Shown: in pieces, positions 25,118 to 61,408 of the stretch | Layout: each line of letters begins with the position of its first letter | Position numbering within the stretch: the first letter of the stretch is position 1 | Assembly: GCA_038150265.1 (NCBI GenBank) | Contig: JAYOTF010000014.1 | Location: 1-64,000, forward strand | DNA from: Deltaproteobacteria bacterium | GTDB taxonomy: Bacteria > SAR324 > NAC60-12 | Reading direction: 5' to 3' | Length of the DNA stretch: 64,000 bases | Position numbers and translations under genes: made by a program | The notes under the pieces: generated by a model | Databases searched by the model: none | Told to the model about the DNA's origin: nothing | What the model saw: the letters and a program-made list of their open reading frames with translations, nothing else

Positions 25118-27766
25118 GTGTCTCGTTTTTTGGTGCCGTTCCGTCTCTCCATTCAACAGCAACTCTTCCTCCTGGTCGTTGTCGTCAGTGGCGTGTTGTG
25201 CCTGGCCATTGGTGGGTTGGTGCACCTGCGAACGGTCCAGTACCTGGAAGCCGCTCAGCTGGAAGACATGGTTCGGCTCCGGGCACTGGTCGCCCAGGAC
25301 ATCAACCGCTTCTTTGAGCAGCATCACCACCCCAACTACCAGGTGAGGCTCCCGGAAGCCCTGGGAGCCCCCGCCCAGCGCTCCTCTTCGGCCAACCGGC
25401 TCCTGCTTCCAGAACAAGGCTCGTTTGATTCCCCCTTGAAGCGCTGGGAAGCCTTCAACGAGTTGGAGACCACCTGGCTCCTCAGTCAGCCCGAAGTCAA
25501 CCACGCCCTGCAGCTCGCCCGTCAAGGGGAAAGCCTGCTCATCCAGACCCGAGTTCCCTCGCACCCCATCAGCTTCTACCTGCATGTGTTCCGAGACGTC
25601 GGACGCCAGGATAACCAACTGGGGCTGTACGCGTTCTACCCCTCCGACCTCACCCGGCTTCTGCAGGAGCACCTCAACTTTGAGCGGCACGACAGCGGGT
25701 TGGTCTTCTGGCTCCGAGATGCCGCCGGGGTCCCGCTCGCCTATGCCGCAGACCCCGGCGAGTTTGATGAGTCCCCTCCGACTCCCCGGACCCTGCGCTC
25801 GTCCAACCAGTTGATGGGAGAAACCTCGATTCCGGTGCCCGGAGGCACCTGGACGCTGACCACCATCCGGGGGCGCTCCGAAATTCAGGAGCAGGCGTGG
25901 GAAATGGTGACGCCCCTCTGGGGACTGCTGGCGTTTGTCTTCGTGATCTTTGCCTCCGGAGGCTTTCTGGTCTCCCGGAAGATCGGGGTCAGCGTCAAGC
26001 AGGTGGTGGAGCAGGCAGAGCGCCTGTCTGCCGGCCGCTACCTCACTCCGGAAGAGACCCCGCTGACCCGCCAAAACGAGCTGGACGCCATCTGCCAGGC
26101 CCTGCTGCAGATCTCTGATGGCTTGCGCGGCATGGAGCAGGAAGCCACCCGGTTCATTGAAGGAGAGGCCACCCGGATTGTGCAGCCGCGCTCCAACGAA
26201 GACAGCATGGCCTCCACCTTCAACCGCATGATTGAAGCGGTGCACCAGCGGGAAGGACGCCTCAAGGAACAAGGTGAGCTGAATGAGACCATCCTCAACT
26301 CCCTCACCGAGGCGATCTTCATTGTCCAGCCAGACGGACAGATCATCCGGACCAATCCCGTTGCCGCTTCCTGGCTAGAGGGAAACCCGGCGGAGACGGC
26401 CAACCTGATGCACCTCTTTGCCGATGAGCAGCAGCTGCATGAGCAGGTTCTCAAGCAACTGCAGCATCATCTGGAGCTGCAACAGGAGACTCCGGACTTG
26501 TTGCAGCAGACGCTTGAGGCCATCCCGCTCCCGGTCATTGGCATCCGCCCAGACAGCTCGATTGCCCTGGTCAACGATCGGTTTCTTGCAGCAACCGGTT
26601 ACGAGACCTCCCTGCTCAACCAAGCCTTCGGCACCCTCCTGCCTTCCGAGTTTCAGGACAAGCATGAGGAGTACGTCGATCACTTCTTTGACGCCTCCTC
26701 CCTTCGGTCGATGGGGCAGGGCGTCCGTTTCCCGCTGATGACGGCAAAGGGGGGCAAGCGCTACTTTGAGGTGGCTTTGATTCCACTCCATGGAGAAAAT
26801 CCGCTGGCGCTGGCGTTCCTGGCCGACCCGGCGACTCAGGAGCGTTGGGAGATCTTCCGACTCGTGTACTTCTCCAGCCTCTTTGACAGCACCGAAAACC
26901 AACGCGTCCAGCAGCTCAAGAAGATGAGTGGCGAGGAGATTCCGGTGCTCGTCTCCACTGCGGTGCTCCACGACCGTGCCGGCATGCTCAACGGCGCCGT
27001 TGTTGCCATGCGTGACCTCACCAGCTTCCAGCGTGTGCAGCGTCAGCTGCAGCAGTCTGCCAAGCTCGCCTCGCTTGGAGAGATGGCCACCGGGGTGGCA
27101 CACGAGATCAACCAGCCCCTGACCTTCATCAACGGGGTGCTCTTTGACCTCGTTGAGGACCTGAACGACGGAGTGCCCCTTGAGCCCCAACAGACCCTGC
27201 AGGACCTCAAGGAGAGCCAGCGTCAGGTCCAGCGCATCACCAAGATCATCCAGCACATGCGCCTGTTCGGACGCCAGCACTCGGATGCTCGTCAGCCGGT
27301 GAGGCTTCGAGAAATCATCAATAACGTCATGCTGTTGCTCGGCAAGAGCCTGCGAAATGCCAACCTTGAAGTGGACCTGACCTATCCGGAGGATGAGGAG
27401 CTGCTGTTCCAGGCCAACCCCATCCAGCTCGAACAGGTCTTCATCAACCTGCTCCAGAACATCATTGATGCCATGGAAGAGCTGGTCCTCCCCCGGGAGC
27501 GACGGTGGGTCCACATCCAGCTCAAGCGCCAACGGGGCAACGGCCTCGTGCTGCTTGAAGACAACGGCCCCGGCATTCCAGAGGAAGTCGTGGAACGCAT
27601 CTTCGACCCCTTCTTCACCACCAAAGGTCCCAACAAGGGCACCGGCCTGGGCCTGTCCATCTCCCTCGGCATCATTGAAGCACACGGAGGACGCCTCCAG
27701 TGCCGGACTCAGGTTGGCAAGGGAACCACGTTTGAGATCACCCTGCCGCTCTCCCAGGAAGCATGA
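25118..27766 (+). CDS. Membrane sensor histidine kinase (periplasmic domain, HAMP-like, PAS domains, NtrB-type kinase)
   Basis: Two TM segments, PAS signatures, [10 protein letters not shown]-box, [15 protein letters not shown] and PFFTTK..GTGLGL. Start uncertain (GTG 25118; ORF open from 24995). Confidence 0.9.
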
Positions 27767-29484
27767 GCCCACTCCGAAAAATCCTGGTTGTGGATGATGA
27801 ACCCCTGGTCCGCCGGACCATTGAGCGGTCGCTCCGGACCCTGGAGGTGGACCTGCACACGGCCGAAAATGGCGCAGAGGGGCTGCAGCAGATTGAGGCC
27901 CTGCACCCCGACGTGGTGGTGCTGGACCTGCGCATGCCGGTTCTGGATGGCCTGGGGGTGCTGCAGCAGCTGGACCTGCGTCCCGATGCCCCTCCAGACG
28001 TCATTGTCCTCACCGGGCATGGAGACGACGACGAGCTACGCGCCTGTTACGCTCAAGGCGCCCGAGCGTTTCTGAAGAAGCCCTTCAATCCCATTGAAAT
28101 GCGAGCCCTGGTGCAGCAAAGCCTCACCATCCGAGAAGCCCAGCAGGCCCTTCAGGAAGTCAACCAGCAACTGGAGCAGCGCGTCCGGGAACGCACCCAG
28201 GACCTGAATCAGCTCAATGAAGCCTTCCGGCGCTTTGTTCCCCGGCAGTACCTCGAGCGGGCGGAGTCGGCGCAGATGGAGGCCTTCCGTCCGGGGCACT
28301 TTCATGTGGAACCGATGACGGTGCTGTTTCTGGACCTCCGGGACTTCACCAACCTCACAGAGCCCCTGACGCCTCTGGAGACCCTGGAATTCCTCAACCG
28401 CTTCTTTGGCCTGATTGTTCCTGTCATTGAAGCGCACGATGGCTTTGTTGACAAATTCATGGGCGATGGCCTGATGGCCCTCTTCGACCGCAGTGAAGGC
28501 GCCCGGCACGCCGTACAGGCGGCGCTGGAGATGCAGGAGGTCCTTCAGGTCCACAATGCCGAACGCGAGCGGCTGCAGCAGCGCCCGTTGCGCTTTGGGG
28601 TCGGCATCCACACTGGCCTGGTCGTGGTGGGGACCATCGGCTCCGACTCCCGCCTCGATTCCACGGCCATTGGCGACACCATCAACTCCGCCTCCCGTCT
28701 GGAGCAACTGACCAAGCAGTACGGCAGCTGGTTGCTGATCACGGAGACCACGCTCAAGGACCTGGCCACCAGCGAGTTTCAGACCCGGATGATCGACCGC
28801 ATCCGCTTTCGGGGCAAGCGCAACCCGCTGCGCATCTATGAGGTCTTTGACCACCTGCCCCTCTCGGCCCAGACCCTCCGGCAGGAACAGGCGCCCCTGT
28901 TTGCCAAGGGGATGGCGCTTTACCAGCAGGGCGCCTTTGAAGAGGCGCTGGACGCCTTTGAGCAGTGCCTCAAGGTGGACCCCGGAGACAGCATCGTCGT
29001 CGAGTACCTCCGGCGCTGCCACACCTTCCTCAAGTACCCCCCCGAGCACTGGGAAGGCATCATGGATGCCAGTGACGAGCTGCTGCAGCGGGCGCGTCGT
29101 CGCACCGCGCCTCGGCTTCCCTTCAGCAGCCCCGCGTGGGTGCAGCGGAATCCGGAACACATCATTCCCGCCCAAACCCTCGACCTCTCTCGCTACGGAT
29201 TGCGACTTGCGCTGGAAGAGGCCGCGGGCATTGGAGAAATCCTCATGGTCCGGATCGACCCCCAGCACCTGCAGCTGGAAATCGGCCTCGACCGTCCCTT
29301 TGAAATGCTCTCCCAGGTGGCGTGGAGTCGGGAAGCCCCGCAGGAAGAGCCCCTCCTGCCCTGGCAAGTGGGAGTCGAGTTTGTGACCCTGGATCCGGAA
29401 GAGGAAATCTGGCTCAACCGCATCCTCATCAACCTGTCGGAACAGGTCCCCAGTTCCTCTCCTCCCGAGGTGTCCCATGCCTAA
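27763..29484 (+). CDS. Response regulator: REC - class III adenylate cyclase - TPR - PilZ
   Basis: REC (LDLRMP), cyclase (FLDLRDFT, VDKFMGDG, STAIGDTINSASR), TPR (GMALYQQGAFEEA) and PilZ (RTAPR, DLSRYG). ATGA overlap with the upstream kinase. Confidence 0.88.
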   Translation: MSPLRKILVVDDEPLVRRTIERSLRTLEVDLHTAENGAEGLQQIEALHPDVVVLDLRMPVLDGLGVLQQLDLRPDAPPDVIVLTGHGDDDELRACYAQGARAFLKKPFNPIEMRALVQQSLTIREAQQALQEVNQQLEQRVRERTQDLNQLNEAFRRFVPRQYLERAESAQMEAFRPGHFHVEPMTVLFLDLRDFTNLTEPLTPLETLEFLNRFFGLIVPVIEAHDGFVDKFMGDGLMALFDRSEGARHAVQAALEMQEVLQVHNAERERLQQRPLRFGVGIHTGLVVVGTIGSDSRLDSTAIGDTINSASRLEQLTKQYGSWLLITETTLKDLATSEFQTRMIDRIRFRGKRNPLRIYEVFDHLPLSAQTLRQEQAPLFAKGMALYQQGAFEEALDAFEQCLKVDPGDSIVVEYLRRCHTFLKYPPEHWEGIMDASDELLQRARRRTAPRLPFSSPAWVQRNPEHIIPAQTLDLSRYGLRLALEEAAGIGEILMVRIDPQHLQLEIGLDRPFEMLSQVAWSREAPQEEPLLPWQVGVEFVTLDPEEEIWLNRILINLSEQVPSSSPPEVSHA

Positions 29485-30613
29485 GAACCGCATCCTCCTT
29501 GTCGATGATGAAGAAATTGTTCGCAGTACCGTCCGACGCGCCCTCCGTCATGAAGCCGTTGAAATCGCAGAGGCTGAAAATGGACAGGTCGCGCTGGAAA
29601 GCATCCGGAGCTGGGAGCCCGATGTGGTCTTCCTGGACCTCCGGATGCCGGTGCTGGATGGAATCGGGCTGCTGCAGGAGCTTCAGCTGACGCCTGAGGT
29701 TCCGCTGCAGGTCATCATTCTGACCGGACACGGCGATGATGAGGAGCTGCGGGAGTGCTACCAGCTGGGCGCCCGTGCCTTTTTGCGCAAGCCCTTCAAC
29801 CGCATTGAAATCCGGGCCCTGATGCGCCAGAGCCTCGACTTCCTCAAGTCTCAGCGGCAGCTGCGCCTCGCTCTTTCCCTGAGGTCGGAGCAGCTGGAGC
29901 AAACGGAGGCCGAGCTGTTTCAGGCCTCCAAGCTCTCCCTCCTCGGCGAGTTCACTGCCGGCATGGTGGTGGACCTCAGTCAGCCCATCGGCTTGCTGAG
30001 CCTGGCGGTGGAAAGTGGCCGGAAGGCCCTGGAGCAACGGGATTGGGAACGGATGGAGCGCGTTGTCAACCGCCTCGGGCAGGCCACTCAGGAGACCATG
30101 GACCTCCTGGACCGCATGCGTTCCTTTGGTCAGCAAAACCTGGAGTCGCCCTACCCGCTGCGCCTGAATGAGACCCTGCAGAAGACCCTCAGGCTGCTGG
30201 AGCAGCCTCTGGAAAACGCCGGCATTTCCGTCAGCCTGGACCTCCAAACGGGGCTCCCGGAGGTCCAGGCCGTCTCCGGACAACTGGAGCAGGTCTTCAC
30301 ACACCTGATCCTGAACGCCAAGGAGGCGCTGCTGCTCAATCGCGCTGAAGGAGAGCGCACCCTGCACCTGCAGACCCGGAGCACGCCCACAGCGGTGCAG
30401 GCCCTTGTGCGCGACAACGGCGGAGGGGTGCCCGAAGACATGGAGCCGCACCTCTTTGACACCCTTTACACGACCCGGGACGGGACGGCCGCTGCAGGGA
30501 TGGGGCTCTCCATCAGCAAACGCTTGCTCGGACTCTACGAGGCTGATATTCTGTTAAACAATTACCCTCATGAGGGAGCGGAGTTTGTCATCACGTTCCC
30601 CCTGAAAATCTGA
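29477..30613 (+). CDS. REC - histidine-kinase-like protein lacking the phospho-acceptor His
   Basis: REC intact. The H-box reads GMVVDLSQP. N, G1 and G2 boxes are recognisable (LILNAKEA, DNGGGV, GMGLSIS). Confidence 0.8.
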   Translation: MPKNRILLVDDEEIVRSTVRRALRHEAVEIAEAENGQVALESIRSWEPDVVFLDLRMPVLDGIGLLQELQLTPEVPLQVIILTGHGDDEELRECYQLGARAFLRKPFNRIEIRALMRQSLDFLKSQRQLRLALSLRSEQLEQTEAELFQASKLSLLGEFTAGMVVDLSQPIGLLSLAVESGRKALEQRDWERMERVVNRLGQATQETMDLLDRMRSFGQQNLESPYPLRLNETLQKTLRLLEQPLENAGISVSLDLQTGLPEVQAVSGQLEQVFTHLILNAKEALLLNRAEGERTLHLQTRSTPTAVQALVRDNGGGVPEDMEPHLFDTLYTTRDGTAAAGMGLSISKRLLGLYEADILLNNYPHEGAEFVITFPLKI

Positions 30614-30642: not shown

Positions 30643-31413
30643 ATGCCAGATTCTGTCATGAAAAAACCTAATTTATTGTTAGTCGATGATGACGCCAGCA
30701 TGTTGGCCTCGCTGCTGGACTTGCTGGAGGAGGATTACACGGTTTATACCGCAGAAAACGGAGAGCGGGCCCTTGACCTGCTCCGGACGTCCGGAGTGGA
30801 CTTCCCGGTGGTGGTCTCTGACCAGAGCATGCCGCGTCTGCCAGGACATGAACTGTTTCGCATCATTCACACGGAATTTCCTGACACGGTGGGGATCCTG
30901 TTTACCGGCTTTCCGGAGGTGGAAAGCCTCATTCAGGCGGTCAATGAGGGGCACATCTACGGCTGCCTCCGCAAGGACTTCAAGGCTCAGGACCTCGTGC
31001 AGCTGGTCAACCGGGCCTACTCCTGGCAGGAGAGCCTGCGGAGCCTCAAGGCTCAAGCGGGCGTGGGTGCCACCGAACTGCTGGAGCAGGAGCTGCAGCG
31101 GGCGTGGCGGTATGGGTTGGAGTACGTGGGCGTCCTGATTGACTGGTCGGGGCCGGCCTCCACCGAGCAGCTGAAGCCCAGGCTCCGCAAGACCGACGTG
31201 GTGGGCAACCTGAATGAGTCACGGAGCCTGGTGCTCCTGACGCACACGCCTCTGGAAAAGGCCCGCCCCGCCCTGGAACGCCTCTTGGCGACCTGCCCGG
31301 AATGCCAACTCGGCATCCTGAAGCCCAGCAACGAGCCTCCGAACTCTGCAGAAGCCTACCTGCTCAGCCTCAGTCAGGAAACCTTCCAGGAAGTCACCCA
31401 GCCCCTTCCTTAA
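30643..31413 (+). CDS. Response regulator with a degenerate GGDEF-like C-terminal domain
   Basis: REC (LVDDD, SDQSMP). C-terminus LEQELQRAWRY...LRKTDVVGNLNESRSLVLL..T....A....ERL follows the GGDEF pattern with NESRS in place of GGDEF. Confidence 0.72.
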   Translation: MPDSVMKKPNLLLVDDDASMLASLLDLLEEDYTVYTAENGERALDLLRTSGVDFPVVVSDQSMPRLPGHELFRIIHTEFPDTVGILFTGFPEVESLIQAVNEGHIYGCLRKDFKAQDLVQLVNRAYSWQESLRSLKAQAGVGATELLEQELQRAWRYGLEYVGVLIDWSGPASTEQLKPRLRKTDVVGNLNESRSLVLLTHTPLEKARPALERLLATCPECQLGILKPSNEPPNSAEAYLLSLSQETFQEVTQPLP

Positions 31414-31769
31414 AGATCCTCCAGCATGGCCATCAGCTCCGGAACCTTGAACGGCTTGTCCAGGAATTTCCAAACGGCCAGGTCGTCAAAGAGGTGCTTG
31501 AAGCTGACGCCTTTCACATCAGCTCCACCGGACATCACGATCACCCGAAAGTCCCACCCACGTCCTCGAACGGTCCGGAGCAGCTCTTCCCCGTCCATCT
31601 CTGGCATGATGTAGTCCGTGATCATCAGATCCGGATGTGCCTCCTCCAGCACCGTCAGGGCCTCCTTCCCGTTCATGACCCCCTGAACCTCGTGGTCCAG
31701 GGTTTCCAGAATGTCAATGAGGACGTCTCGGAAGACAGCGCTGTCTTCCACCACAAGTATCTTAGCCAT
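31410..31769 (-). CDS. Single-domain response regulator
   Basis: ILVVEDS, ITDYIMPEMDG, MSG and KPF. ATG at 31769. Confidence 0.9.
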   Translation of the reverse strand: MAKILVVEDSAVFRDVLIDILETLDHEVQGVMNGKEALTVLEEAHPDLMITDYIMPEMDGEELLRTVRGRGWDFRVIVMSGGADVKGVSFKHLFDDLAVWKFLDKPFKVPELMAMLEDL

Positions 31770-33399
31770 GCCGGGTCTCAGAGTGGGAATCAACAGAGAA
31801 TTTCGGGAGTTGGATGTGAAAGCAGGCGCCCGCGTCTTGGTTTTCCACCGTCAACCGGCCTCCCAGATGCTGCTCCACAATCATGCGGGACATGTGCAGT
31901 CCCAGTCCGGTTCCTTGACGGTCCCGCTTTGTACTGAAGTAAGGCTCAAAGATCCGTTCCTTGAGTTCGTTGGGAATGCCACCTCCGGAGTCTGCCACAC
32001 TGAGCAGGAGCGAGGTGTCCTGGTTCACCAGCGTAAACGACAGGCGCCGGTTGGCTTCCGGCACACTCTGCAGGGCGTCCACCGCGTTGCTGATGAGGTT
32101 CAGCAGCACCTGCAGCAATTCGTTGGGCAAGGAGTCGATCGGGTCCACCTCTTCAAATGAGAGGGCGACCTGGACCTGAAAGCGCTCCAGGCGTTGTTCC
32201 ATGAGGCTCAGGGCCTGCTGGCAGACGGTCTTGACACACGTCGGCTGCTGCTGCTGCTCAGCCTGGAGCATCTTCCGGAAGTCTTCAATGGTTTGGGAAA
32301 GGTACTCCGTCTGTGTCTGAATCTGCGTCAGGCCTTCCCCCAGCGCCTGCTCGCTCAGCTTGTGGAGCTGCCGTTTGAGGATCATGCCCTGTGCCAGGGT
32401 GCTGATGACCGCAAGCGGTTGGCGCCACTGATGCGCCACCATGCCCAGCACCTCGCCCATGGTCGCCAAGCGCGTTGCCTGCCGGAGCTGCTTTTGGGAC
32501 TCCAGCAACGCCTCGTTCGCCTGCGACAGCTCAGCATTGGACCCCTCCAGGTTCTCCTCGGCGAGGGTCCGCTCCTCCATCAGCTGCACCATGGTCTGCT
32601 GATACACCTTCACGGCCTCCATCAGCTGGACCACCTCATAAGTCGTCATCTGTTTCGGATCAAAGCGCATGGGCCGCACCAGGTGGGTGCGGTCAGCATT
32701 TTGCCACCGCAGGCTGTGCTCCGAAATCTTGTCCGCCAGGCCCATGAGGGGCAGGCTGAGGCGCCGGGAGAGGTAGTTGACGAGGACCAGGGAGACCGCC
32801 AGGCTGATGAGCACCATGACCGTCAGGTTCTGAATCTCCTCACGCAGGAGTCCGGTCTGGAAGTCGTCGTTGAAGAGGACCATCAGGCGCCCGAGTGGCG
32901 CCCCACGGTTGTTGAGCAACACCGAAATCTCCATGAACTGCTCCCCGGGCTCCAGCACCCGGTGGCTCAGTTGCAGGCGCTCAGAGAGTTCCACTTTCTT
33001 GCTGAAGAATCCCTGGGCCTTGTAGCCCTGGAGGGGAACGGTGCCACTGTCGAGCAATCCCACCACCCGGCGCTTGGGGAGCCCATTGGCTTGAAAGACA
33101 ACCTCGTCCGATGCATCCAGCACCACTCCTTCGGGGTCCAGGACGTACACCAACTCCACCTGAGGCAGGGCACTCATTTCCTCTAGTGTGATATTCAGCA
33201 GCGCCCAGTTCCGAGACAGCACCGAATCCGTACAGTCTCGCACAAAGGTCATCACCAGCCACTGGTTGAGCTCCAGCTGCTGTTGCTGCTGAGACTGGGT
33301 GGCATACCAGATCTGGTAGGCAAACATCAGGGATGCCGTCAGGAGGAGCAACCCTCCAAACCAAAGAAACAGCTGAGATTGAATCCGCAGGCGCTTCAT
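31762..33399 (-). CDS. Membrane sensor histidine kinase
   Basis: Two TM segments, MVAHQWRQPL H-box, QVLLNLISNA, DSGGGI and PYFSTK..GTGLGL. Confidence 0.9.
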   Translation of the reverse strand: MKRLRIQSQLFLWFGGLLLLTASLMFAYQIWYATQSQQQQQLELNQWLVMTFVRDCTDSVLSRNWALLNITLEEMSALPQVELVYVLDPEGVVLDASDEVVFQANGLPKRRVVGLLDSGTVPLQGYKAQGFFSKKVELSERLQLSHRVLEPGEQFMEISVLLNNRGAPLGRLMVLFNDDFQTGLLREEIQNLTVMVLISLAVSLVLVNYLSRRLSLPLMGLADKISEHSLRWQNADRTHLVRPMRFDPKQMTTYEVVQLMEAVKVYQQTMVQLMEERTLAEENLEGSNAELSQANEALLESQKQLRQATRLATMGEVLGMVAHQWRQPLAVISTLAQGMILKRQLHKLSEQALGEGLTQIQTQTEYLSQTIEDFRKMLQAEQQQQPTCVKTVCQQALSLMEQRLERFQVQVALSFEEVDPIDSLPNELLQVLLNLISNAVDALQSVPEANRRLSFTLVNQDTSLLLSVADSGGGIPNELKERIFEPYFSTKRDRQGTGLGLHMSRMIVEQHLGGRLTVENQDAGACFHIQLPKFSVDSHSETRHG

Positions 33400-33406: not shown

Positions 33407-34336
33407 TCACTGCACCTGGATGCTCTCTAGGTGAAAGAAGGCCTCCAGTTTATTGGGAAACAGCAAGGACTCGTTGCTTCCGGTTTGTGCCGGTAGCACA
33501 ATGAATCCGCCCCCAAAGGTCTCGGGAATGGAGTTCCCTTCCAGGGAGTAGGCCACCAGCAGCTGGTCCCGGTCGCTTTCCGCAGGAATGACCATTTCAA
33601 GCCCCAGGGAGGAGCGGAGCCTCAGCGGACGCCCCTGTGCGGTCTCGGGCAGCAGCTGACTCAGAGGCACCACGCCAATCTCCGTGTTCTCATTCGGCAC
33701 CATCACCCCCTTGCGGACTCCACGCGGAATCGGAAGCACCCGGTTCAGGGTTGACCGAGAGGCCCGGAGCATCTGCTCACGCGACCACGCCTGGGTGGCG
33801 TCTCCCTGCTGCACCTCCACCGACGACACCAGGTCGATGTGCCCAAAGAGGAGCATCTTGACGTACCAGGTGTAAAGCCCCACGTCTCGTTCGCTCGTGC
33901 TCATGACCTTCACCGGTCCACCGCGACGTGGAGAGATGGGTTCTCCGTTTTGCTCAAAGGCCAGGAGGGCACCCGCCCGGACCAGGTCGGTAAAGGGTTC
34001 ATGCGTGCTGTAGCCATCATTGGCCAGCATCGTCAGGTCTCCCTCAAACGGCTGCTCCAGCTGGAGCACCTGGGGCAGGTCCTCAAACGGCATCCCGCTG
34101 AACTGCTGGGGGCCATCCTTGGAAAAGATGGGGTCTGTGACTTCAATGGTCTTGAGGTAGGGGCGCAGGTCTTCTTCGGTGACCACCTTCTCACGAATCT
34201 GCAAGTTGGCGTCACGGATGAACAGGTGCAGCTCAAAAGGTACGGCCTGGACCGCAGAGCTGGTGATCAGCAGGAGCAGCAGCGCTCCAGGGAGCCTCTT
34301 CAAGGGGATTAGCCACTGCTGAAAAAAATGAGTCAT
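33407..34336 (-). CDS. Exported protein with two SUOX/molybdopterin-oxidoreductase-like domains (PruR-like)
   Basis: Signal peptide (AVQA). Domain 1: FSGMPF..L, ANDGY, LLAFEQNGEPI...RGGP and WYVK. Weaker second copy: LLVAYSLEGNSIPETFGG. No obvious Mo-ligating Cys. Confidence 0.6.
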   Translation of the reverse strand: MTHFFQQWLIPLKRLPGALLLLLITSSAVQAVPFELHLFIRDANLQIREKVVTEEDLRPYLKTIEVTDPIFSKDGPQQFSGMPFEDLPQVLQLEQPFEGDLTMLANDGYSTHEPFTDLVRAGALLAFEQNGEPISPRRGGPVKVMSTSERDVGLYTWYVKMLLFGHIDLVSSVEVQQGDATQAWSREQMLRASRSTLNRVLPIPRGVRKGVMVPNENTEIGVVPLSQLLPETAQGRPLRLRSSLGLEMVIPAESDRDQLLVAYSLEGNSIPETFGGGFIVLPAQTGSNESLLFPNKLEAFFHLESIQVQ

Positions 34337-50823: not shown

Positions 50824-51185
50824 TACCCGAGTACTTTCTTGGTCACCGCGATCAGCCGCTGGGGATCAAAGGGTTTGATAATCCAACCGGTGGCGCCCAC
50901 CTCCTTGGCCTCTTGCTTCTTGCTGGCCTCCGACTCCGTGGTCAGGACAATCACCGGGACAAACTTGTAGTCCGGATGCTGCCGCACAGCCTGGATGACC
51001 CCAATGCCGTTGAGATTGGGCATGTGCAGGTCCGTGATCACCATGTCGATCTGACCACTGAGGCGATTGACGGCATCTTGCCCGTCTTCTGCGGCCTCCA
51101 CAGAATAGCCGGCCTCTTCGAGAGTCAGGCGAACCATCTGCCGGACACTGTTGGAGTCGTCAGCGATGAGGATGCGTTTGCTCAT
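50823..51185 (-). CDS. cheY: Chemotaxis response regulator CheY
   Basis: IADDS, TDLHMP, LTTES and GWIIKPF. TAATG overlap with cheA. Confidence 0.92.
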   Translation of the reverse strand: MSKRILIADDSNSVRQMVRLTLEEAGYSVEAAEDGQDAVNRLSGQIDMVITDLHMPNLNGIGVIQAVRQHPDYKFVPVIVLTTESEASKKQEAKEVGATGWIIKPFDPQRLIAVTKKVLG

Positions 51186-53588: not shown

Positions 53589-53941
53589 TACGCGGCTCCA
53601 CTCGATTTGAAGTCCCAGAGGGCCTGGTCTTCGGTTTCATGAATCTTGATGAACCGGGAGAAGCCACAGATGTCCAGGATCTCATGCACCTGATCTCCCA
53701 CCTGCACCAGGGCAAATTCCCGGTTCTGGGCCTTGAGCTGCTTGTAGCAGTCTGCCACGAGGCCAATGCCACTGGAGGTGATGTAGTTCAGCTCGCTGCA
53801 GTCGAGGATGAGCCCACTGCTTTCCGTGTCCTCGAGGTACGTGTTGAGGTTCTCCCGCGTCTCTCGTGAGGCTTCAAGCCCCAGTTGCTCTCCCAGTGTC
53901 ACAACGTGCACGGAATCCACTTTCTTGTGCTTCAACGGCAT
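53588..53941 (-). CDS. STAS anti-sigma-factor antagonist (SpoIIAA/RsbV-like)
   Basis: ILDCSELNYITSSGIG with the phosphorylatable Ser, and V.EILDICGF. Confidence 0.88.
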   Translation of the reverse strand: MPLKHKKVDSVHVVTLGEQLGLEASRETRENLNTYLEDTESSGLILDCSELNYITSSGIGLVADCYKQLKAQNREFALVQVGDQVHEILDICGFSRFIKIHETEDQALWDFKSSGAA

Positions 53942-53954: not shown

Positions 53955-56111
53955 TTAAAGTAACAAACTCAGATCTTCCCCTGTCAGGACCAGCAAGGGG
54001 GCACCTGTTCCCATCACAATGCACCCCTCAAAGCCTCCTTCTGCGAGGAAGGGATGCAGGAAGGGGCGGATGACCCCCTGAGTGAACTTGAGGATGCGGT
54101 CGGCATGAAAGGCCATCTGCTGGCGTCGGGAATCCTCCAGCACCAGAATCACACCCGCCTGGGGCGCCCCAGGCGCCTGCCCCAGCCCCAGCCGGGCCTG
54201 GAGGTCGAGGTAGTGACACGCAATGCCTCGGTGCCGGAACACCCCATTTTCCGGAACCTCCGGATGCAGCGACAGGTCCACAATCTCTCGGATGACGTCG
54301 TACCGGACCGCAATGGTCCGTCCCGCCAGTTCCACCACCAGCACCTTGCGGGACTGCAACCCCAGGCGCAGTGGACAGAAGAGGGTGATCTCGGAACCCT
54401 TCCCGAGCTCCGAGGCAATGCGGACGTCGCCCCCGTGGTGCCGGATCGTGCTGGCCACCACATCCATGCCCACCCCGCGGCCGGACACATTGGTGACCTT
54501 CTCCGCCATGGAGAAACCGGGCGCCATGAGCAGCTCAAACACCTCCTCATCGGTGTACTCGGCATCAGGCTGCGCCAGCCCCCGCTCCAAGGCTTTGTTG
54601 AGGACCCGCTGGACGTCAATGCCGTTGCCGTCATCGGAGACGGTCAGGCAGAGCATTTCCGGCTCCAGACGCGCTGCGACCCGCAGGTTTCCGACGTCGG
54701 GCTTCCCCCTTTGCTTGCGGACATCCGGCGTCTCAATGCCATGGTCGAGCGAGTTCCGGATCAGGTGCACAAACGGATCGCCCAGGAGGTCAATCACCGA
54801 GCGATCCACTTCCAGGTGCTCGCCTCGCAGCTCCAGCGACACCCGCTTGCCCAGGTCCCGCTCCAGCTGCCGGAGCATCCGGGGCAGTCGATCGAACAGC
54901 TCACTCAGGCGAGACGCCCGGAGCTGCTGCAGCGACTCCTGAAGGCCGCCGAAGCGCTGCTGCACGCGTTGAACCGCCCCCCGCATTTCGAGAGACATCC
55001 GGGGGTCGAGGCTCTGGCGGGTCTCCTGCTCCAGGGCATCCAGGTGGTTCAGCTCCGTCACCACCTCTTCAGCATGACGCGTGAACTCGTTGAGGTCGTC
55101 CATGCCGATGCGGATCATCTCGCGCCGGGGCGCCTGAGCCGCATTGGCCGGAGCAGGCGCACTGGCCGGAGCAGGCGTCCGGGCGGAGCCGAGCCCGAGC
55201 ATTTCGAGCGCAAACTCACTGGCATCATGGGAGCGGACGTTGCACTTGCGCTCCAGGCCTTCCACCCAGAACTGCTTCCAGAACTGCTCCACCATGTCAG
55301 GAACCAGGCGGGCCAGGGCGCTGAGCGAGTCCCAGTCCAGCACCGGCTCAGGCGCATCCGGATAGAGGAGCCGGTCCATCTGCTGCACCAGCGGTTCATA
55401 GCGCTCAATGCCCTCCGGCGGCAACCCTGCGCCCGCGGCAATCAGCTCCTCCAGCCCAATCAGCACCTCCCGGACCCCTGGGGTGATGTCGTCTCCCTCC
55501 GGAGTCAGCACCGACTCCAGCAGAACGCTCCGGACCACCACGTCCACCTCAAGGGATTGCTTCTTGGCAAAGTAGGTTTCCAGCGTGTCCAGGGCATCCA
55601 GCACCTCCTGAGGCGGAGGCGCCGCGGCACTGCGGGCCCGTCCAGACTCTGCCTGCTCCACCAGGTTCCGGAGGCGGTTGGCCAGGGGCTCCACTTTTTC
55701 CTCGGAAGGCTCCTCCTTGTTGAGGCCCTGCAGGAAGCGGTCGAAGCGGTCATCGAGCTTCATCTCCTGCTGCCGCATCCGCTCCAGCGCATCCTGAAGC
55801 AGGTCAATGCCTTCCAGCACCCGGGTCTGCTCGCTTTCGCGCAGCGCCCGGTTCTGTCCCTTGAGCTGCTGGAGGTAGCTTTCAAAGACGTGGGCAAAGG
55901 ACTGGAGCGCCATGAGGTCAAAGAACCCGGCGGTGCCCTTGACGGTGTGGACCCAGCGGAAGATTGCGGCCAGGGTCTCAATGGGCTGCTCCTCCAGATG
56001 CTCCAGGTCTTCCTGAATCAGCTCCAGGCCGTTGAGGGATTCCTCCACAAAGGCCTGAATGATCTCGGGGTCAAAGAAGGAGTTGACTTCCGGAGTCGTC
56101 GTGTCGCTCAT
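53955..56111 (-). CDS. cheA: Chemotaxis-type histidine kinase CheA (copy 2, divergent)
   Basis: IFRWVHTVKG HPt, DPFVHLIRNSLDHGIE, DDGNGID and APGFS..VSGRGVGMDVV. Divergent dimerisation and CheW-like domains. ATG at 56111. Confidence 0.9.
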   Translation of the reverse strand: MSDTTTPEVNSFFDPEIIQAFVEESLNGLELIQEDLEHLEEQPIETLAAIFRWVHTVKGTAGFFDLMALQSFAHVFESYLQQLKGQNRALRESEQTRVLEGIDLLQDALERMRQQEMKLDDRFDRFLQGLNKEEPSEEKVEPLANRLRNLVEQAESGRARSAAAPPPQEVLDALDTLETYFAKKQSLEVDVVVRSVLLESVLTPEGDDITPGVREVLIGLEELIAAGAGLPPEGIERYEPLVQQMDRLLYPDAPEPVLDWDSLSALARLVPDMVEQFWKQFWVEGLERKCNVRSHDASEFALEMLGLGSARTPAPASAPAPANAAQAPRREMIRIGMDDLNEFTRHAEEVVTELNHLDALEQETRQSLDPRMSLEMRGAVQRVQQRFGGLQESLQQLRASRLSELFDRLPRMLRQLERDLGKRVSLELRGEHLEVDRSVIDLLGDPFVHLIRNSLDHGIETPDVRKQRGKPDVGNLRVAARLEPEMLCLTVSDDGNGIDVQRVLNKALERGLAQPDAEYTDEEVFELLMAPGFSMAEKVTNVSGRGVGMDVVASTIRHHGGDVRIASELGKGSEITLFCPLRLGLQSRKVLVVELAGRTIAVRYDVIREIVDLSLHPEVPENGVFRHRGIACHYLDLQARLGLGQAPGAPQAGVILVLEDSRRQQMAFHADRILKFTQGVIRPFLHPFLAEGGFEGCIVMGTGAPLLVLTGEDLSLLL

Positions 56112-56530
56112 GAGCCTCCTTTGCGGGCCTCTCGGGCGAGCTGCAACCAGTAATTGCGCCGCCGGAGCATCGTCTTGACGGCGTGGCCAAAGGAGTCCCA
56201 GTCGAGGGGAAAGAAGAACAGGTAGTCGGCGCCTTGCCGGTTGCTCCGGGCCACGGCTTCCAGGTCCTTCTCCCGGGCCAGGAAGATCAGGCTGGTGGAG
56301 GGCGCCAGTTGCCGAGCCCGCTTCTTCCACTCAAAGCCATCAAAGCTGTCGCAGTTGATTTCAATGAGCAGCAGGTGGCACGGGTTGCGGCTGAGGAAGC
56401 TCATGAAGCCCTTGGGACTGTGGTGGTAGACCACCTCATAGTCGTCCTTGAAGAAGGTCTTCAGCTCCTCATTGGTCTCGGGCTCCGCCAGGGTCGCCGT
56501 GATGAAAGAGGCCTGAGGGGGCTCCGTCAT
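56108..56530 (-). CDS. Pseudo-receiver domain protein
   Basis: Receiver-like pattern CHLLLIEINCDSFDG (Glu at the phospho-Asp site), LIFLA and GADYLFFFPL (Lys absent). ATGA overlaps on both sides. Confidence 0.65.
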   Translation of the reverse strand: MTEPPQASFITATLAEPETNEELKTFFKDDYEVVYHHSPKGFMSFLSRNPCHLLLIEINCDSFDGFEWKKRARQLAPSTSLIFLAREKDLEAVARSNRQGADYLFFFPLDWDSFGHAVKTMLRRRNYWLQLAREARKGGS

Positions 56531-57408
56531 GCGTCCTCCCAGCGCTTGATCATCGTGATGCGGTTGCCGCTGTCACTCCACTCCACCGCATCCATGATGC
56601 CCTTGATGAGCAACAGCCCCCGCCCATGCGTTTGCGTGGGGCTCGCATTGACGGCGCCTCGGTAGGCCGACGGGTCAAAGCCCGGGCCTTCGTCTTCCAG
56701 GGAGACCCGGAGCATCTCGGCGTCCAGGTCCACCTGAATCCGGACCTGACGGTCCTTGAAGGCCGGGTCCTCCATCCGAGAGGCGACCATCTCCTCAAAC
56801 TGCTCCCACGACTCATCCTTCAGGGATGACGGCAGCTCCAGGTTGCCGTGGATGACGGAGTTGGTCAGCGACTCCTGGAGGCAGAGGTCAATGAGGTGCA
56901 CCGGAACCTGATTGCTTTCACAGAGGGGACGGTAGAGGGACCGCAGCGTCTGCACCGTGGCGGCCACCAGATCCGGACGGCTGGGAACCAGCAGGCGCAG
57001 CTTGAGGTTGCTGACCCCAAGGAGCTCCGTCTGGCGGTTGGTTTCTTGCTGCCGGACCTTGAGGCGATCGAGGGCCGACTGGAGGACATGAAAGGCAAAG
57101 GGCTTGAGGATGAGGTCCACGGCGCCCAGCTTGAGGGCCTCCACCGAGGTCTGCACATCGCCATGCCCGGTGATCAGGATCGTCGGCGTCATGATGCGTC
57201 CCCGGACCATGCGCCGCAGGAGCTCCATGCCATCCATCACAGGCATGCGAATGTCCGAGAGGACCGCATCAAAGCCGGGGCCGTCCTTCAGGAGCTTGAG
57301 GGCCTCCTCTCCGTTTCCGGCGGCTTCCACCTCATAATCCGCATCCTCAAGCAGCTCAACCAGCGAGTCGCGCCACCCGGGTTCATCATCGACCACCAGC
57401 AGCCTCAT
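56527..57408 (-). CDS. REC - RsbW-type serine kinase/anti-sigma factor (HATPase_c_2)
   Basis: REC (VVDDE, SDIRMP, KPF), LQESLTNSVIHGN, EDEGPGFD and HGRGLLLI. Confidence 0.88.
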   Translation of the reverse strand: MRLLVVDDEPGWRDSLVELLEDADYEVEAAGNGEEALKLLKDGPGFDAVLSDIRMPVMDGMELLRRMVRGRIMTPTILITGHGDVQTSVEALKLGAVDLILKPFAFHVLQSALDRLKVRQQETNRQTELLGVSNLKLRLLVPSRPDLVAATVQTLRSLYRPLCESNQVPVHLIDLCLQESLTNSVIHGNLELPSSLKDESWEQFEEMVASRMEDPAFKDRQVRIQVDLDAEMLRVSLEDEGPGFDPSAYRGAVNASPTQTHGRGLLLIKGIMDAVEWSDSGNRITMIKRWEDA

Positions 57409-58607
57409 GAGGCCTCCTTTTGCTCCAGAGCATGCACCTCCACCCCCATCAGGGTGGCATCGTCATCAAAGCGGTCCTTGCCAGCAAAGTTCAGCACCGA
57501 CTGCATGATCTTCTGGGTCATGCTGGAGAGGCTTTCATTGCGGAGGCTGAAGAGCGTCTTGCGCAAGCGGGGCTCGCCAAACAGCTCGGAGCTGCGGTTC
57601 TTGCCCCACGCCGGGTTGGTTTCCAGCAACGCGTCCGTGTAGATGAGGATCCGGTCACCCGGATTGAGCAGCACCTTGCCCTCGCCATACTGAACCACGT
57701 CGCTGGGCAACACCCCCAGCACCACGCCCTCGGTGGAGAGGCTGATGATCTCATCGTCCCCCTTGCGGATCAGGTAGGCCGGAGGGTGTCCGGCACAGGT
57801 GTAGGTCAGCTCATGGGTCTGCTCATCAAAGACCATGTAGAACAGGCTCGCGAAGCGTCCCGGAGGCATGTAGTCGTTGAGGGTGTCGTTGATGCGAGAG
57901 ATGGCCTCCTGCGTTGAGCTGTGGCTCCCTCCCACCTGCCGGAAGGTGAGGCGGAGCATCATGGCAATCATTGAGGCAGACAGTCCATGACCCGTGACAT
58001 CCGCGACCACCATCCCAATGAGGTGATCATTGAGGCGGAGGACGTCATAGAAGTCGCCGCCCACCTCATCCATCGGGATGAACTCCGCCTGAATCTGCAG
58101 GTGTTCGGAAATGTTGAGGCTGTGGGGCAGCAGCAGCTCCTGCGCCACCCGGGCCTGCTCCAGGTCGTAACGGCTTTGCTTCTGCAGGGAGATCAGGTGC
58201 TCATTCAGCATCTCCACCATCTCCAGGTGCCCATTCATGCGCCGGTTCTCCTGCAGCAGCTCGTGGTGCTTCAGAAAGACCGGAAAGAGGTGCTCCAGGA
58301 TCTGGTCCGGATGCTCCTGCAGGAAGGAAAACTGAATCAGGTTCAGGTCCTCTTGCGCCTCCTCGTCTCCAATGCAGATCGCCAGCGTCTCCGGATACTT
58401 GTCCTGAAACCGCCTCAGCTCCTCGCCACTCCGGCCAATGATGATCTCCGGAGAGGCGCCTCCGGGCTGGAGGGTGCTGAGGACCTCCTCCACTTCCTGA
58501 TACAGCTCCACCGTGAACAGGTGCCCGAGCTGCTGCTCCAGGATCAGGAACTCCGGTGTGGAGCCCACCAGCAGGATGAGGTTCGGTTTGGGAAACTGAG
58601 GACTCAT
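57405..58607 (-). CDS. SpoIIE/RsbU-type PP2C serine phosphatase with a degenerate N-terminal receiver-like region
   Basis: ARVAQELLLP, VGGDFYD, VADVTGHG, AGHPP, YTDAL and DDATL. Confidence 0.9.
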   Translation of the reverse strand: MSPQFPKPNLILLVGSTPEFLILEQQLGHLFTVELYQEVEEVLSTLQPGGASPEIIIGRSGEELRRFQDKYPETLAICIGDEEAQEDLNLIQFSFLQEHPDQILEHLFPVFLKHHELLQENRRMNGHLEMVEMLNEHLISLQKQSRYDLEQARVAQELLLPHSLNISEHLQIQAEFIPMDEVGGDFYDVLRLNDHLIGMVVADVTGHGLSASMIAMMLRLTFRQVGGSHSSTQEAISRINDTLNDYMPPGRFASLFYMVFDEQTHELTYTCAGHPPAYLIRKGDDEIISLSTEGVVLGVLPSDVVQYGEGKVLLNPGDRILIYTDALLETNPAWGKNRSSELFGEPRLRKTLFSLRNESLSSMTQKIMQSVLNFAGKDRFDDDATLMGVEVHALEQKEAS

Positions 58608-58610
58608 GGC

Positions 58611-58955
58611 TCAGGAGGCAAGGCGTTCGAGGGCCACTTCCAGAGAAGGCGTGACCTGAAGGAAGCGGTCAATCTGCGTCAAGGCGATCGTCTGACGGAC
58701 CACCTCGTTGGGACCACTGAGGAGGAAGGGAATGCGGTGACTGAGGGAAAGCTTGGAGCCGAACAGGATGATGCCAATTCCGGACGAGTCGAGAAAGTCC
58801 AGGTCTTCGAGGCTCAGCACAATTCCAGACGGCGTTTCCTTGACCAACTCCTCCAGCTGCTGCTTGAGCTTGGACACGTTGGAGCTTTCCAGCGTCCCGG
58901 CAAGGGTGACCACCTGAACGGCGCCACTGGTGCTGAGTTCGATTTGTAGGGACAC
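58611..58955 (-). CDS. STAS anti-sigma-factor antagonist (SpoIIAA/RsbV-like)
   Basis: LAGTLE, LDFLDSSGIG with the phosphorylatable Ser, and LTQIDRFL. Confidence 0.9.
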   Translation of the reverse strand: MSLQIELSTSGAVQVVTLAGTLESSNVSKLKQQLEELVKETPSGIVLSLEDLDFLDSSGIGIILFGSKLSLSHRIPFLLSGPNEVVRQTIALTQIDRFLQVTPSLEVALERLAS

Positions 58956-59200: not shown

Positions 59201-60988
59201 TCACGTTGCCTCAGAGGCTGGAAGCCAGATCCGGAAGGTGGCGCCTCGTTCGCCATCTTCATAGGCCACACCGCCCCCTTGCTCCCGCATCAGGTTGTAG
59301 GCAATGGAGAGCCCCAGCCCCGTTCCCTTTCCCAATTCCTTGGTGGTAAAAAAGGGATCAAACAGCTGTCCCTGCTGCTGTTTGGGGACCCCCGGGCCGT
59401 TGTCGGTCAGCCGCATCTCCACCTGCGCGGCTCCGGTCGTGAGGGGCTGGACGGTGACCGCGACCAGCAGGAATCGATTGGACTCCCCCTCCATGGCATC
59501 CAGCGCGTTATTCAGCAGGTTCAGCAGCACCTGTTCCGTCTGTCCCGGGTTTCCTTCCACACGCGGCAGGCCGTCAGGCCAGCTCTCCTGCACGGAAACC
59601 CCCTCATTCAGGAGCCGGTGCCGGATCAGGCTCAGTGCGTTGTTGAATGTCACCGGGAGTTCAAAAGCGGTCCGGACCTGCTCATCCATTCGCCCAAAGG
59701 TCCGGACGTGATCGATGATGGCAGCCACCCGGCTGCAGGATTCCTGCGCCTTGGCCGTGGTCTGCAGGAGCTTCTCCCGAGGGAGCACCCGCTGGCGGAT
59801 CAGTTCGAGGGAGAGGGAGATGTGAGCCAGTGGGGTGTTGATCTCATGGGCCATTCCAGTTGCCATCCGCCCCAATGAGTGCAGCTTCTCCTTGTGATAC
59901 ATTTCCTCCTGCAGGAAGGCCTCATTCCTCAGCTTCAGGGCCTTCAGGCGCGCAAACTTCCAGGAGGCGTACAGCAGCGCCAGGCCAAACAGGCAGTAGA
60001 TCCCGAACAGGGGCACAAACTCCTGCAGCACCTGCTGGGCGAACTCATCGGCATCCAGAAACGAAATGAAGTACAACTGCTGGTTGCTGAACACCACGTC
60101 ACCTCCCCGGTTAAGGGGCAGGTGGGTGGGAGAAAAACGGGTAAAACAGGCAATGCCCTCTTCATTCCTCAGGCACTGGCTCCGGAGAGTCGTCTCCTGC
60201 ATCGCCTTCCAGGTGAGCGGTTTTTGCAGACGAAGGTTCTCGGCCTTCCGGTCCGGCAAACTTCCTCCCCATTCCTGGCTCGGGGCTTCCCCCATCACGT
60301 AGTAGCCGTCCTGATCCACCACCACCGACCGGGTCTGTTCTTCAGAACGTTCCACCTCTTTCAGCGCATCCAGCAGGTCGGCCCCCAGGTAGTTGAGCAC
60401 CACAATGCTCACCGGAGCGTAAGACGAGGCCCCAGCCTTCAGCACGACCCGAAGGACTGGCTTGAGTGGGCGTTCCACCACGCCCCCCTCCACATTCAGG
60501 TCCAGCGCAGAAATGTAATACTGGTTGTGCTCCAGCCGGAGGCCTTCCTGAAAGTAGTAGCGGTCCCGTTTGCTCTGGAGTTGGCTCGGGGGCACCTTTT
60601 CCACGTCCCCCTCCCTGAAGTTGTAGCGCACCTGTTCCTGCCCAGAGGCGTCTAGCAAGCGGAACTGGTCATAGACCCCTCGGCTCTTCATGAACTCAGT
60701 CATGGTCTCATCCAGGTGGTCATGCGTTCCAAAGTCTCGGAACCCCACCTTGATGAAGCGCGCATCCGAGACCAGCAGGTCCACCTTTTCGCGCAACACC
60801 GCGGCTCCGAACACGGGGAACAGCAACTCCTCCGAATGGAGGGCGAGCGTTTTTTCGGCAACGAGCGAACGCCACGTGAGCCAGCTCAGGGTGACGATGA
60901 ACACCACCACAGCCATGAGCAGACTCACAAACAGCCTCCGGTAGCTCTCCCAACCAATGGAGTCAGAGATCAGCTTGGACGTGGGCAC
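59201..60988 (-). CDS. Membrane sensor histidine kinase with a dCache-like periplasmic domain
   Basis: YDQFRLLD..GQE.VR, K.DRYYF, YISALDLNVE..P.KPVLR, GMAHEINTPL, DNGPGV and PFFTTK..GTGLGL. Confidence 0.9.
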   Translation of the reverse strand: MPTSKLISDSIGWESYRRLFVSLLMAVVVFIVTLSWLTWRSLVAEKTLALHSEELLFPVFGAAVLREKVDLLVSDARFIKVGFRDFGTHDHLDETMTEFMKSRGVYDQFRLLDASGQEQVRYNFREGDVEKVPPSQLQSKRDRYYFQEGLRLEHNQYYISALDLNVEGGVVERPLKPVLRVVLKAGASSYAPVSIVVLNYLGADLLDALKEVERSEEQTRSVVVDQDGYYVMGEAPSQEWGGSLPDRKAENLRLQKPLTWKAMQETTLRSQCLRNEEGIACFTRFSPTHLPLNRGGDVVFSNQQLYFISFLDADEFAQQVLQEFVPLFGIYCLFGLALLYASWKFARLKALKLRNEAFLQEEMYHKEKLHSLGRMATGMAHEINTPLAHISLSLELIRQRVLPREKLLQTTAKAQESCSRVAAIIDHVRTFGRMDEQVRTAFELPVTFNNALSLIRHRLLNEGVSVQESWPDGLPRVEGNPGQTEQVLLNLLNNALDAMEGESNRFLLVAVTVQPLTTGAAQVEMRLTDNGPGVPKQQQGQLFDPFFTTKELGKGTGLGLSIAYNLMREQGGGVAYEDGERGATFRIWLPASEAT

Positions 60989-61018
60989 ACGCCTCCTGAC
61001 ACGGCGAAACTCAACGTG

Positions 61019-61408
61019 TTACGCATCCTGTTCCAGAGCCGACCGCATGGCTCCCAGCAATTTTTCCCAAGAGGCGGGCTTCCCCAGGCACCGGTACGCG
61101 CCCAATTCGCTGCACTTTTGTTCAGTGGAGGCATCCAGGTGTCCGGAGTGGACAATGATGCGACAGCGGTGCTCCTCGTGCTGCAGGGTCTTCAAAACAT
61201 CGATCCCACTCAGGTGAGGCATGTTCAGATCCAGCAAAATGAGCGCAGGCTGGTGGATTTGGAACTGCTCCAGTGCCAGCTTGCCATCTGCGGCCTCCAC
61301 GACCTGGTAGTCCTCTTCACAGAGATCGGCAAGTGACTGCCGCAGCATGTCGTTGTCTTCTGCAATCAGCAGGATGGGTTTACACACAGGCCTTTGTCTG
61401 GAATTCAT
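61019..61408 (-). CDS. Single-domain response regulator
   Basis: IAEDN, LLDLNMP, HSG and GKP. Confidence 0.88.
   Translation of the reverse strand: MNSRQRPVCKPILLIAEDNDMLRQSLADLCEEDYQVVEAADGKLALEQFQIHQPALILLDLNMPHLSGIDVLKTLQHEEHRCRIIVHSGHLDASTEQKCSELGAYRCLGKPASWEKLLGAMRSALEQDA

Follow-up and report, generated by a model that had tools for sequence, protein, structure and literature searches.

Among bacterial chemosensory systems, the F8 class is defined by a 34H receptor together with CheD (PMC9321776, S1 table), and the signature of F9 is a two-domain receptor (DosM) combined with a concatenated CheW (PMC9321776, PMC7534058). The outputs of both classes are treated as open questions (PMC7534058, PMC9321776, PMC11253619). 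STAS and phosphatase genes within chemosensory clusters have been published for stage 1/2 F7 systems (PMC7184735) and for Che1 with CrsR/CrsA of S. oneidensis (PMC9855816), and a coupling between partner switches and chemosensory genes is therefore a known theme. The locus described here is a cluster of 30 open reading frames (ORFs) on contig JAYOTF010000014.1 of a SAR324 bacterium (assembly GCA_038150265.1), within a window of 64,000 nucleotides to which all coordinates refer; its genes are numbered g1 to g30 from left to right, the source genome is termed G000, and two congeners are termed G001 and G002. The cluster joins an F8 system (CheA1), a second and divergent chemosensory unit (CheA2), a serine partner switch and two cyclase-PilZ genes. 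It is real, unusual, assembled from known kinds of parts and narrow in distribution. We read it as a lineage-specific mosaic of modules which evolved separately, are expressed jointly and have no more than partial wiring among them; for this explanation as a whole, including an output of CheA2 to the REC-RsbW protein g26, we see the chances as evenly balanced.

The 30 ORFs lie within 24995-61408. Pfam signalling domains were found in 26 of them, and two further ORFs, g10 and g22, are chemoreceptor-like, which gives 28 genes of signalling type and bears out the initial annotation of about 30 consecutive, mostly signalling genes; the remaining two are g7 (33407-34336) and g15 (42985-45522). The long, overlapping minus-strand run converging on a plus-strand operon was likewise described correctly: the run from g28 to g5 (58955 down to 31410) comprises 24 genes with 10 overlaps at 23 junctions and a widest gap of 93 bp, and the four plus-strand genes converge on it with a 4-bp overlap. 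Read from the operon start, the order is STAS, PP2C, REC-RsbW, pseudo-receiver and CheA2, with CheA1 further on and a cyclase-PilZ gene beyond it. A gap of 245 bp separates the run from the kinase-receiver pair g29-g30 (59201-61408). A promoter scan gave 3 sites where 2.3 were expected; two of the three, both weak, fall into this gap and are suggestive, and g28 is the probable first gene of the long operon. Due to the tight spacing and the conservation in one congener, co-expression is likely, and we infer that the 24-gene run is probably co-transcribed. The cluster is also the densest signalling stretch of the genome, with 39 of 128 signalling-domain bins as against 11 on the next contig, a count that leans toward the cluster because the queries were its own genes.

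The source genome (3.39 Mb, 98% complete) belongs to a phylum of 88 genomes in a single class. In G002 the whole block is present and colinear, with g1-g28 66-98% identical and dN/dS (nonsynonymous over synonymous substitution rates) of 0.01-0.28. Silent divergence between the two species is 0.42-1.24 in the cluster and 0.52-1.05 in nine flanking genes, which indicates that the block is older than the species split. With g29 and g30 only 37% and 50% identical to their G002 counterparts and not orthologous to them, the outer kinase-receiver pair has probably been replaced there. In G001 (96% complete) a C6-type CheA was the only CheA found, together with no STAS match and no signalling genes adjoining either flanking gene; since these two flanking genes sit on different contigs, this does not amount to a clean empty site. 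Thus, synteny with related genomes holds for G002, and the cluster was not found in G001. Two species, both of the same uncultured genus, showed the complete arrangement, and no other examined genome had the combination. A mobile island was rejected, and composition gives no support to the word island of the initial annotation: GC content is 0.59-0.65 across the cluster compared to 0.61 genome-wide, no tRNA was found in the window, and silent divergence resembles that of the flanking genes.

The unit around CheA1 (g19, 48655-50823; minus strand, like all genes from g5 to g30) is part of an ordinary F8 system. Both features of the class are present, namely CheD (g11, 38919-39539; PF03975) and a transmembrane chemoreceptor with a C-terminal pentapeptide (g17, 46200-48323), which is 7 residues shorter than the 36H Tsr in each arm and is therefore assigned to 34H. 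Here and below, gene identities are from Pfam where no other basis is named. In a quick tree CheA1 falls into a clade with 98-99% support that contains 30 of the 40 rows and several phyla; this clade was labelled F8 from gene context. Further members are CheY (g20, 50823-51185), CheW (g16, 45616-46128), a CheR of 279 aa without TPR (g14, 42118-42957), CheB (g12, 39559-40638; also above the NCBIfam cut-off) and an F8-type, CheS-like accessory STAS protein without the phospho-Ser (g18, 48368-48658). From the class it would follow that the 34H receptor, CheW and CheA1 bring about phosphorylation of CheY and CheB and probably of the receivers of embedded kinases. The F8 class, e.g., cluster II of P. 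syringae pv. tomato (PMC11253619), shares with this unit the 34H transmembrane receptor, CheD, the CheA1 clade, a Ser-less STAS and a two-hairpin companion protein. The unit differs in that it is interrupted by a fused MFS/spermidine-synthase gene (g15; NF037959 above cut-off) and by a REC-REC-kinase without phospho-His (g13, 40655-42121; H-box), and in that the run of genes to which it belongs also takes in another CheA unit and a gene for a cyclase-PilZ protein. In 24 loci of other lineages, many of them incomplete, no RsbW kinase, CheA2 or cyclase was found, and a PP2C in one. Two other affiliations were sought in the cluster: the 36H Aer2-like receptor of stage 1/2 F7 is absent, the sole canonical receptor being 34H and transmembrane, and neither a CheA-REC fusion nor a CheR-TPR fusion as in ACF systems is present, neither CheA carrying a receiver. 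Both species carry g15 within the che operon, with cheW on one side and cheR on the other; the two copies are 88% identical, and the gene was seen in none of the other F8 loci examined.

The companion protein g10 (37118-38911) is soluble and chemoreceptor-like, with a pair of hairpins as in receptors, a conserved DxxxQ motif resembling that of CheZ (weak CheZ match) and a conserved acidic tail. Its homologues adjoin CheA1 relatives in 8 of 24 loci of other lineages, many of these loci being incomplete, and within the phylum they were found in 10 of 72 genomes. The predicted model (pLDDT 85) is a single four-helix bundle with both tips at the same end, possibly an artefact of monomer prediction; a fold search with it gave no match at E 0.001 and otherwise generic four-helix bundles. 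The protein may mimic a receptor within a single chain and act as a phosphatase. Members of the g10 family stand beside F8 clusters in several phyla (loci L016, L017, L020, L021, L024, L026, L033, L039, and L054-L061), with DxxxQ near-invariant.

CheA2 (g24, 53955-56108) is divergent in the tree and retains the Hpt His and the ATP-binding boxes. Orthologs occur in 3 of the 88 genomes of the phylum (at least 343 bits, compared to at most 201 for all others), the third being that of G020, which belongs to another genus. The G020 operon contains genes for a two-domain receptor, a four-domain CheW, CheB, CheV, REC-PP2C, CheZ, a pseudo-receiver, CheA2 and STAS, and furthermore another CheA, HEAT, CheR, a receiver, REC-RsbW and, in last position, FliG. 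Hence, the succession of pseudo-receiver, CheA2 and STAS, accompanied by REC-PP2C and REC-RsbW within one operon, is found again in another genus. The nearest CheA1 relative of G020 is on a different contig from the CheA2 ortholog, so that G020 keeps apart the two systems that are united in the cluster. The long F9-type operon of G020 (G020:C1:95600-126000, L004-L005) comprises four CheA-like genes, one of them split in two frames, and includes Hsp70-like and ParA genes.

Next to CheA2 lie the STAS gene g23, a soluble two-hairpin protein (g22, 52116-53588) and a tandem CheW-CheW of 292 aa with a degenerate second domain (g21, 51238-52116); neither g22 nor g21 has a hydrophobic segment. A sequence search for relatives of g22 returned only the G002 copy, and no MCPsignal Pfam match was obtained. 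Over its whole length, however, g22 can be aligned with such two-domain, DosM-type receptors. A DosM profile was built from 7 sequences, of which 3 belong to the phylum and 4 to F9 clusters annotated on plasmids. With this profile g22 scores 18.1 bits (7467 genome ORFs searched, E 3e-4), ranks best after 7 true receptors and has its N- and C-terminal domains and both hairpin tips in register, whereas heptad shuffles reached at most 9.1 bits (298 of 300 scored). Its structure model (pLDDT 60) was used for helix boundaries only. Membership of g22 in the g10 family was considered and rejected, with an hhalign probability of 21% and 9 bits as against 18 for DosM. Three of the four top plasmid matches of CheA2, ranked by coverage times identity, are F9 CheAs. 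Both with moderate support, g22 is probably a DosM that has degenerated and become shorter, and CheA2 with its neighbours probably a remnant of class F9 without CheR, CheB and CheY of its own.

Compared to F9 systems such as cluster I of V. cholerae (PMC7534058, PMC9321776), the succession of a soluble two-hairpin receptor and a concatenated CheW is the same, and the G020 ortholog of CheA2 lies within a DosM operon. Different here are the degenerate DosM-like protein, about 50 residues shorter between the tips, the presence of two CheW stretches in place of the triple concatenated CheW, the absence of CheB, CheR, HEAT and CheY, and the order pseudo-receiver, A, STAS, M, W instead of MWB...RYA. 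In the partial F9 sets of these accounts it is CheA that has been lost, with CheB and CheR retained; the CheA2 unit shows the reverse. We presume that CheA2, the shortened DosM-like scaffold and the tandem CheW would form a reduced, F9-derived cytoplasmic array without its own CheR, CheB, CheY or sensing receptor.

The pseudo-receiver g25 (56108-56530) has Glu at the phospho site and has lost the conserved Lys; its family counts 11 members, 9 of them with Glu at this position. Of the two copies in G009, one lies in a DosM cluster and one stands alone, and a metagenome scan with the family alignment gave 4 weak loci without the ortholog context. A complex prediction for CheA2 residues 1-400 with g25 scored 0.00 and was uninformative. 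With the middle region of CheA2 as query, 8000 candidates were scored and the protein of the window itself was the sole one recovered; since the search missed the known orthologs, it says nothing on rarity. In a DosM locus of G009 (G009:C354:1-15540, L042), genes for DosM, four-domain CheW, CheB and CheV are followed by genes that by eye resemble stressosome rsbR/S/T/X.

The STAS, kinase and phosphatase parts of a serine partner switch are present. The target Ser, located by alignment to SpoIIAA, is kept in two STAS proteins above the TIGR00377 cut-off, g28 (58611-58955) and g23 (53588-53941), and is absent in g18; an RsbW-type kinase domain (PF13581) is found in g26 (56527-57408) and a PP2C (SpoIIE) phosphatase without intact receiver (PF07228) in g27 (57405-58607). 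In g26 an intact receiver is joined to the Ser kinase/anti-sigma fold, and the protein matches PDB 9QIH over its whole length (E 5e-29). This entry, labelled SenB, is most likely LvrC, judging from its listing among six deposits (PMC13269768). LvrC of Leptospira interrogans is phosphorylated by the REC-kinase LvrB and was proposed as an anti-sigma factor (PMC13269768). Both proteins carry REC and a Bergerat-fold domain over the full length; they differ in that LvrC has LvrB as its kinase, whereas the g26 gene is coupled to those of PP2C, STAS and CheA2. The genes g27, g26, g25 and g24 overlap in series, and no intact receiver other than that of g26 lies beside CheA2. From this coupling, the g26 receiver would be the most likely output of CheA2, and g26 together with g27 would set the phosphorylation of the two Ser-bearing STAS proteins. 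Candidate targets of the latter would be a cyclase-PilZ protein, CheA2 itself, or a small sigma factor.

In its predicted parts the partner switch is LvrC/CrsR-like. With stage 1/2 F7 (PMC7184735) and Che1 CrsR-CrsA of S. oneidensis (PMC9855816) it has in common that genes for STAS proteins and for Ser phosphorylation and dephosphorylation lie within a chemosensory operon; here, in contrast, the receptor is 34H and the system thus not F7, kinase and phosphatase are separate proteins, and the genome has only three sigma-70-family matches. As in SiaABCD of P. aeruginosa (PMC9239204), a PP2C, a Ser kinase and a STAS protein possibly control a nucleotide cyclase and not a sigma factor, yet the output of SiaABCD is a diguanylate cyclase, and the candidate here is an adenylate cyclase-PilZ protein. 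A second REC-RsbW gene lies among housekeeping genes at G000:C30:32064-33116, and a similar single copy of low identity was recovered from most of the family's genomes; one of these is G001, which gave no STAS match.

Several observations weigh against the mosaic as proposed. The DosM match of g22 is weak in absolute terms, and its tip spacing is 249 residues compared to 300 in 7 out of 7 DosMs. CheA2 scores 245 bits with an F9 profile, 227 with F8 and 247 with a mixed profile, and in the tree it forms a long branch outside the F8 clade that neither joins F9 nor parts from it firmly. Its matches in Ralstonia, which we take to be F7-type, score about equal to the F9 plasmid matches. The start codons behind the junction counts were picked by hand, and the link between CheA2 and a partner switch was seen in three genomes of two genera. 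No CheA lies within ~8 kb in any of the 16 closest loci of g26 homologues fetched (CheR in one), and the kinase of LvrC is the REC-kinase LvrB, not a CheA (PMC13269768). Conversely, the 10 overlapping junctions and a synteny unbroken over 0.5-1 substitutions per silent site would fit a tighter integration.

The LvrC precedent leads to the possibility that the modules are independent neighbours: g26, as a regulator of the LvrC type, would answer to a REC-kinase, for instance g8, and CheA2, grouped with g21-g23 and g25, would act alone as a scaffold or accessory, with a CheS-like STAS. Consistent with this, 52 of 72 genomes from the phylum contain proteins of the g26 type, in up to 18 copies, and g8 (34351-35847), a REC-REC-histidine kinase of LvrB-like layout with its His intact, matches the NCBIfam LvrB model, as does g3, in both cases below cut-off. 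Furthermore, F9 arrays form without a CheA of their own (PMC9321776, PMC7534058), and the STAS-only CheS binds CheA (review PMC12654446). The serial overlaps from g27 to g24, the want of another intact receiver beside CheA2 and the recurrence of the operon in another genus speak for the coupling, and we consider such independence unlikely.

Cyclic nucleotides enter by two proteins, g2 (27763-29484, plus strand), a REC-class III cyclase-TPR-PilZ, and g9 (35896-37134), a class III cyclase-PilZ without receiver; a third cyclase-PilZ gene is located on contig C33. Both keep the class III motifs, i.e., two metal-binding Asp, the substrate Lys, and the transition-state Asn and Arg. RxxxR and DxSxxG are the PilZ motifs that bind cyclic di-GMP (c-di-GMP); both are present in g2, and in g9 the first is shifted by one residue. 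The c-di-GMP modules of the initial annotation amount to candidate receptor domains alone, the two PilZ tails, and no c-di-GMP enzyme belongs to the cluster: Pfam gave no GGDEF, EAL or HD-GYP domain among the 30 ORFs. The gene g4 (30643-31413, plus strand) encodes REC and a C-terminal domain without assignment, GGDEF-like by eye only. A degenerate GGDEF c-di-GMP receptor is at most a possibility for it: the RxxD motif is kept in G002, yet the score against the GGDEF domains of the genome is below zero. Genome-wide, two GGDEF proteins, one HD-GYP match and no EAL match were found. One of the former (G000:C6:29944-31389), present in all three congeners, combines a cyclic nucleotide (cNMP)-binding domain with a GGDEF domain bearing a GGEEF site and is a candidate cyclic AMP (cAMP)-activated diguanylate cyclase, by which a loop from cAMP to c-di-GMP is possible; the genome has two cNMP matches, neither of CRP size. 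The two cyclase-PilZ proteins are predicted from their motifs to make cAMP and would respond to phosphorylation as well as to c-di-GMP from enzymes encoded in other parts of the genome. At G000:C4:75365-78736 lies the gene of a membrane protein that carries the GGDEF domain four times in tandem, with all active-site motifs off consensus; it is present in G002 and was not found in G001.

Among the 12 top-scoring loci of cyclase-PilZ homologues in other genomes, STAS, PP2C or RsbW genes lie within ~8 kb in 6, and two, from two genera, are REC-cyclase-PilZ-STAS fusions followed by REC-RsbW or REC-PP2C; none of the 12 has a canonical CheA. These loci would suit a single integrated circuit, in which both CheAs and other kinases feed shared receivers, phosphorylated STAS proteins control the cyclase-PilZ proteins, and cAMP acts through the cNMP-GGDEF protein to return c-di-GMP to the PilZ tails. 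The close packing of the 24 genes (no gap above 93 bp), all of which purifying selection has kept in both species, the cNMP-binding domain on the sole GGDEF protein with a GGEEF site, and the observation that the CheAs of F6, F8 and ACF in P. syringae all bind one output regulator (PMC11253619) point in the same direction. However, a single genus, with 107 and 123 STAS matches per genome, accounts for 5 of the 6 loci, and only the fusions weigh much, since proximity is partly expected in such STAS-rich genomes. In its kinase domain g26 shares no more than 26-27% identity with the REC-RsbW proteins found in those cyclase-PilZ modules, the combination recurs in no other examined genome, and the outer kinase pair is swapped in G002. 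An integrated circuit of this kind is improbable in our view, and the single circuit of the initial annotation was not upheld as a conserved one: the modules lie apart in relatives, g29-g30 have no orthologs in G002, and a c-di-GMP-making enzyme is missing. In the two four-domain fusions, from G008 (L090:7611-9656) and G004 (L098:7944-9983), the fused STAS keeps the Ser motif.

Within the mosaic that we favor, an action of STAS proteins on the cyclases is speculative. Its boldest form, an F9 system stripped of adaptation enzymes, CheY and sensing receptors, with what is left, a short scaffold-kinase of the cytoplasm, solely driving a Ser partner switch, STAS gating the PilZ-tailed cyclases, and a sigma-independent cAMP/c-di-GMP loop, closed through the cNMP-domain diguanylate cyclase and co-expressed with an F8 array, we regard as distinctly doubtful.

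Motility offers a further interpretation, an accessory chemotaxis system which acts on the flagellar motor via CheY, with the other genes as modulators. No flagellar or sigma factor gene is present in the window, as initially stated; this does not extend to the genome, which has two FliM genes and three sigma-70 region 2 matches elsewhere and no PilT match above cut-off. Together with a CheY (g20) that is 98% conserved in G002 and the terminal fliG of the F9-type operon of G020, the FliM genes would be in agreement with a motor target. Then again, a separate che cluster with three receptors on contig C6 is common to all three congeners, and G001 has FliM though it lacks the cluster. Loss of the F8 kinase in P. 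syringae altered biofilm and swimming and did not abolish chemotaxis (PMC11253619), which fits a non-steering role. We judge a primarily motor function very unlikely; the role of the mosaic would be cell-state adaptation, not primary flagellar steering. That non-motility outputs are plausible, as initially suggested, is in line with the key residues kept in the Ser kinase, the phosphatase, the two STAS proteins and both cyclases. Two long RpoD-like sigma factors and the second, divergent FliM are encoded at G000:C2:39398-41284, C43:5856-7568, and C47:14357-15385.

The remaining genes are mostly kinases and receivers. On the plus strand, g1 (25118-27766, open frame from 24995) encodes a membrane HAMP/PAS histidine kinase with its H-box His intact, and g3 (29477-30613) a REC-kinase; like g13, g3 lacks the phospho-His in both the source genome and G002. 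On the minus strand follow a single receiver (g5, 31410-31769), a membrane histidine kinase (g6, 31762-33399), the molybdopterin-oxidoreductase-like g7 (partial PF00174 match), and, beyond the 245-bp gap, the membrane histidine kinase g29 (59201-60988) and the single receiver g30 (61019-61408). A paralogue of g3, likewise His-less, is coupled at G000:C3:121084-124676 to a REC-GAF-Hpt kinase resembling CheA without the CheW domain. The flanks (9455-16098, 20709-24954), read by eye, contain housekeeping genes: an isc/hsc cluster, minCDE, a glycine-betaine ABC transporter and a RibD C-terminal domain gene.

No account of this combination, of a degenerate DosM or of a cyclase-PilZ fusion was found in the literature, most subscription journals lying outside the search; supplements possibly bearing on this are the F9 component list of PMC9321776 and bioRxiv 10.64898/2026.05.11.724241. 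The breadth of the finding is that of an arrangement known as a whole from two species of one uncultured genus. Few candidate targets (three sigma-70-family matches, one GGEEF cyclase, one HD-GYP match, no EAL match) and a compact operon make the outputs testable in vitro with about ten soluble proteins. If the proposed reading is true, the retention of CheA with loss of adaptation would represent a route of repurposing different from that of the published partial F9 sets and would qualify the view that mixing between chemosensory classes is rare (PMC9239204).

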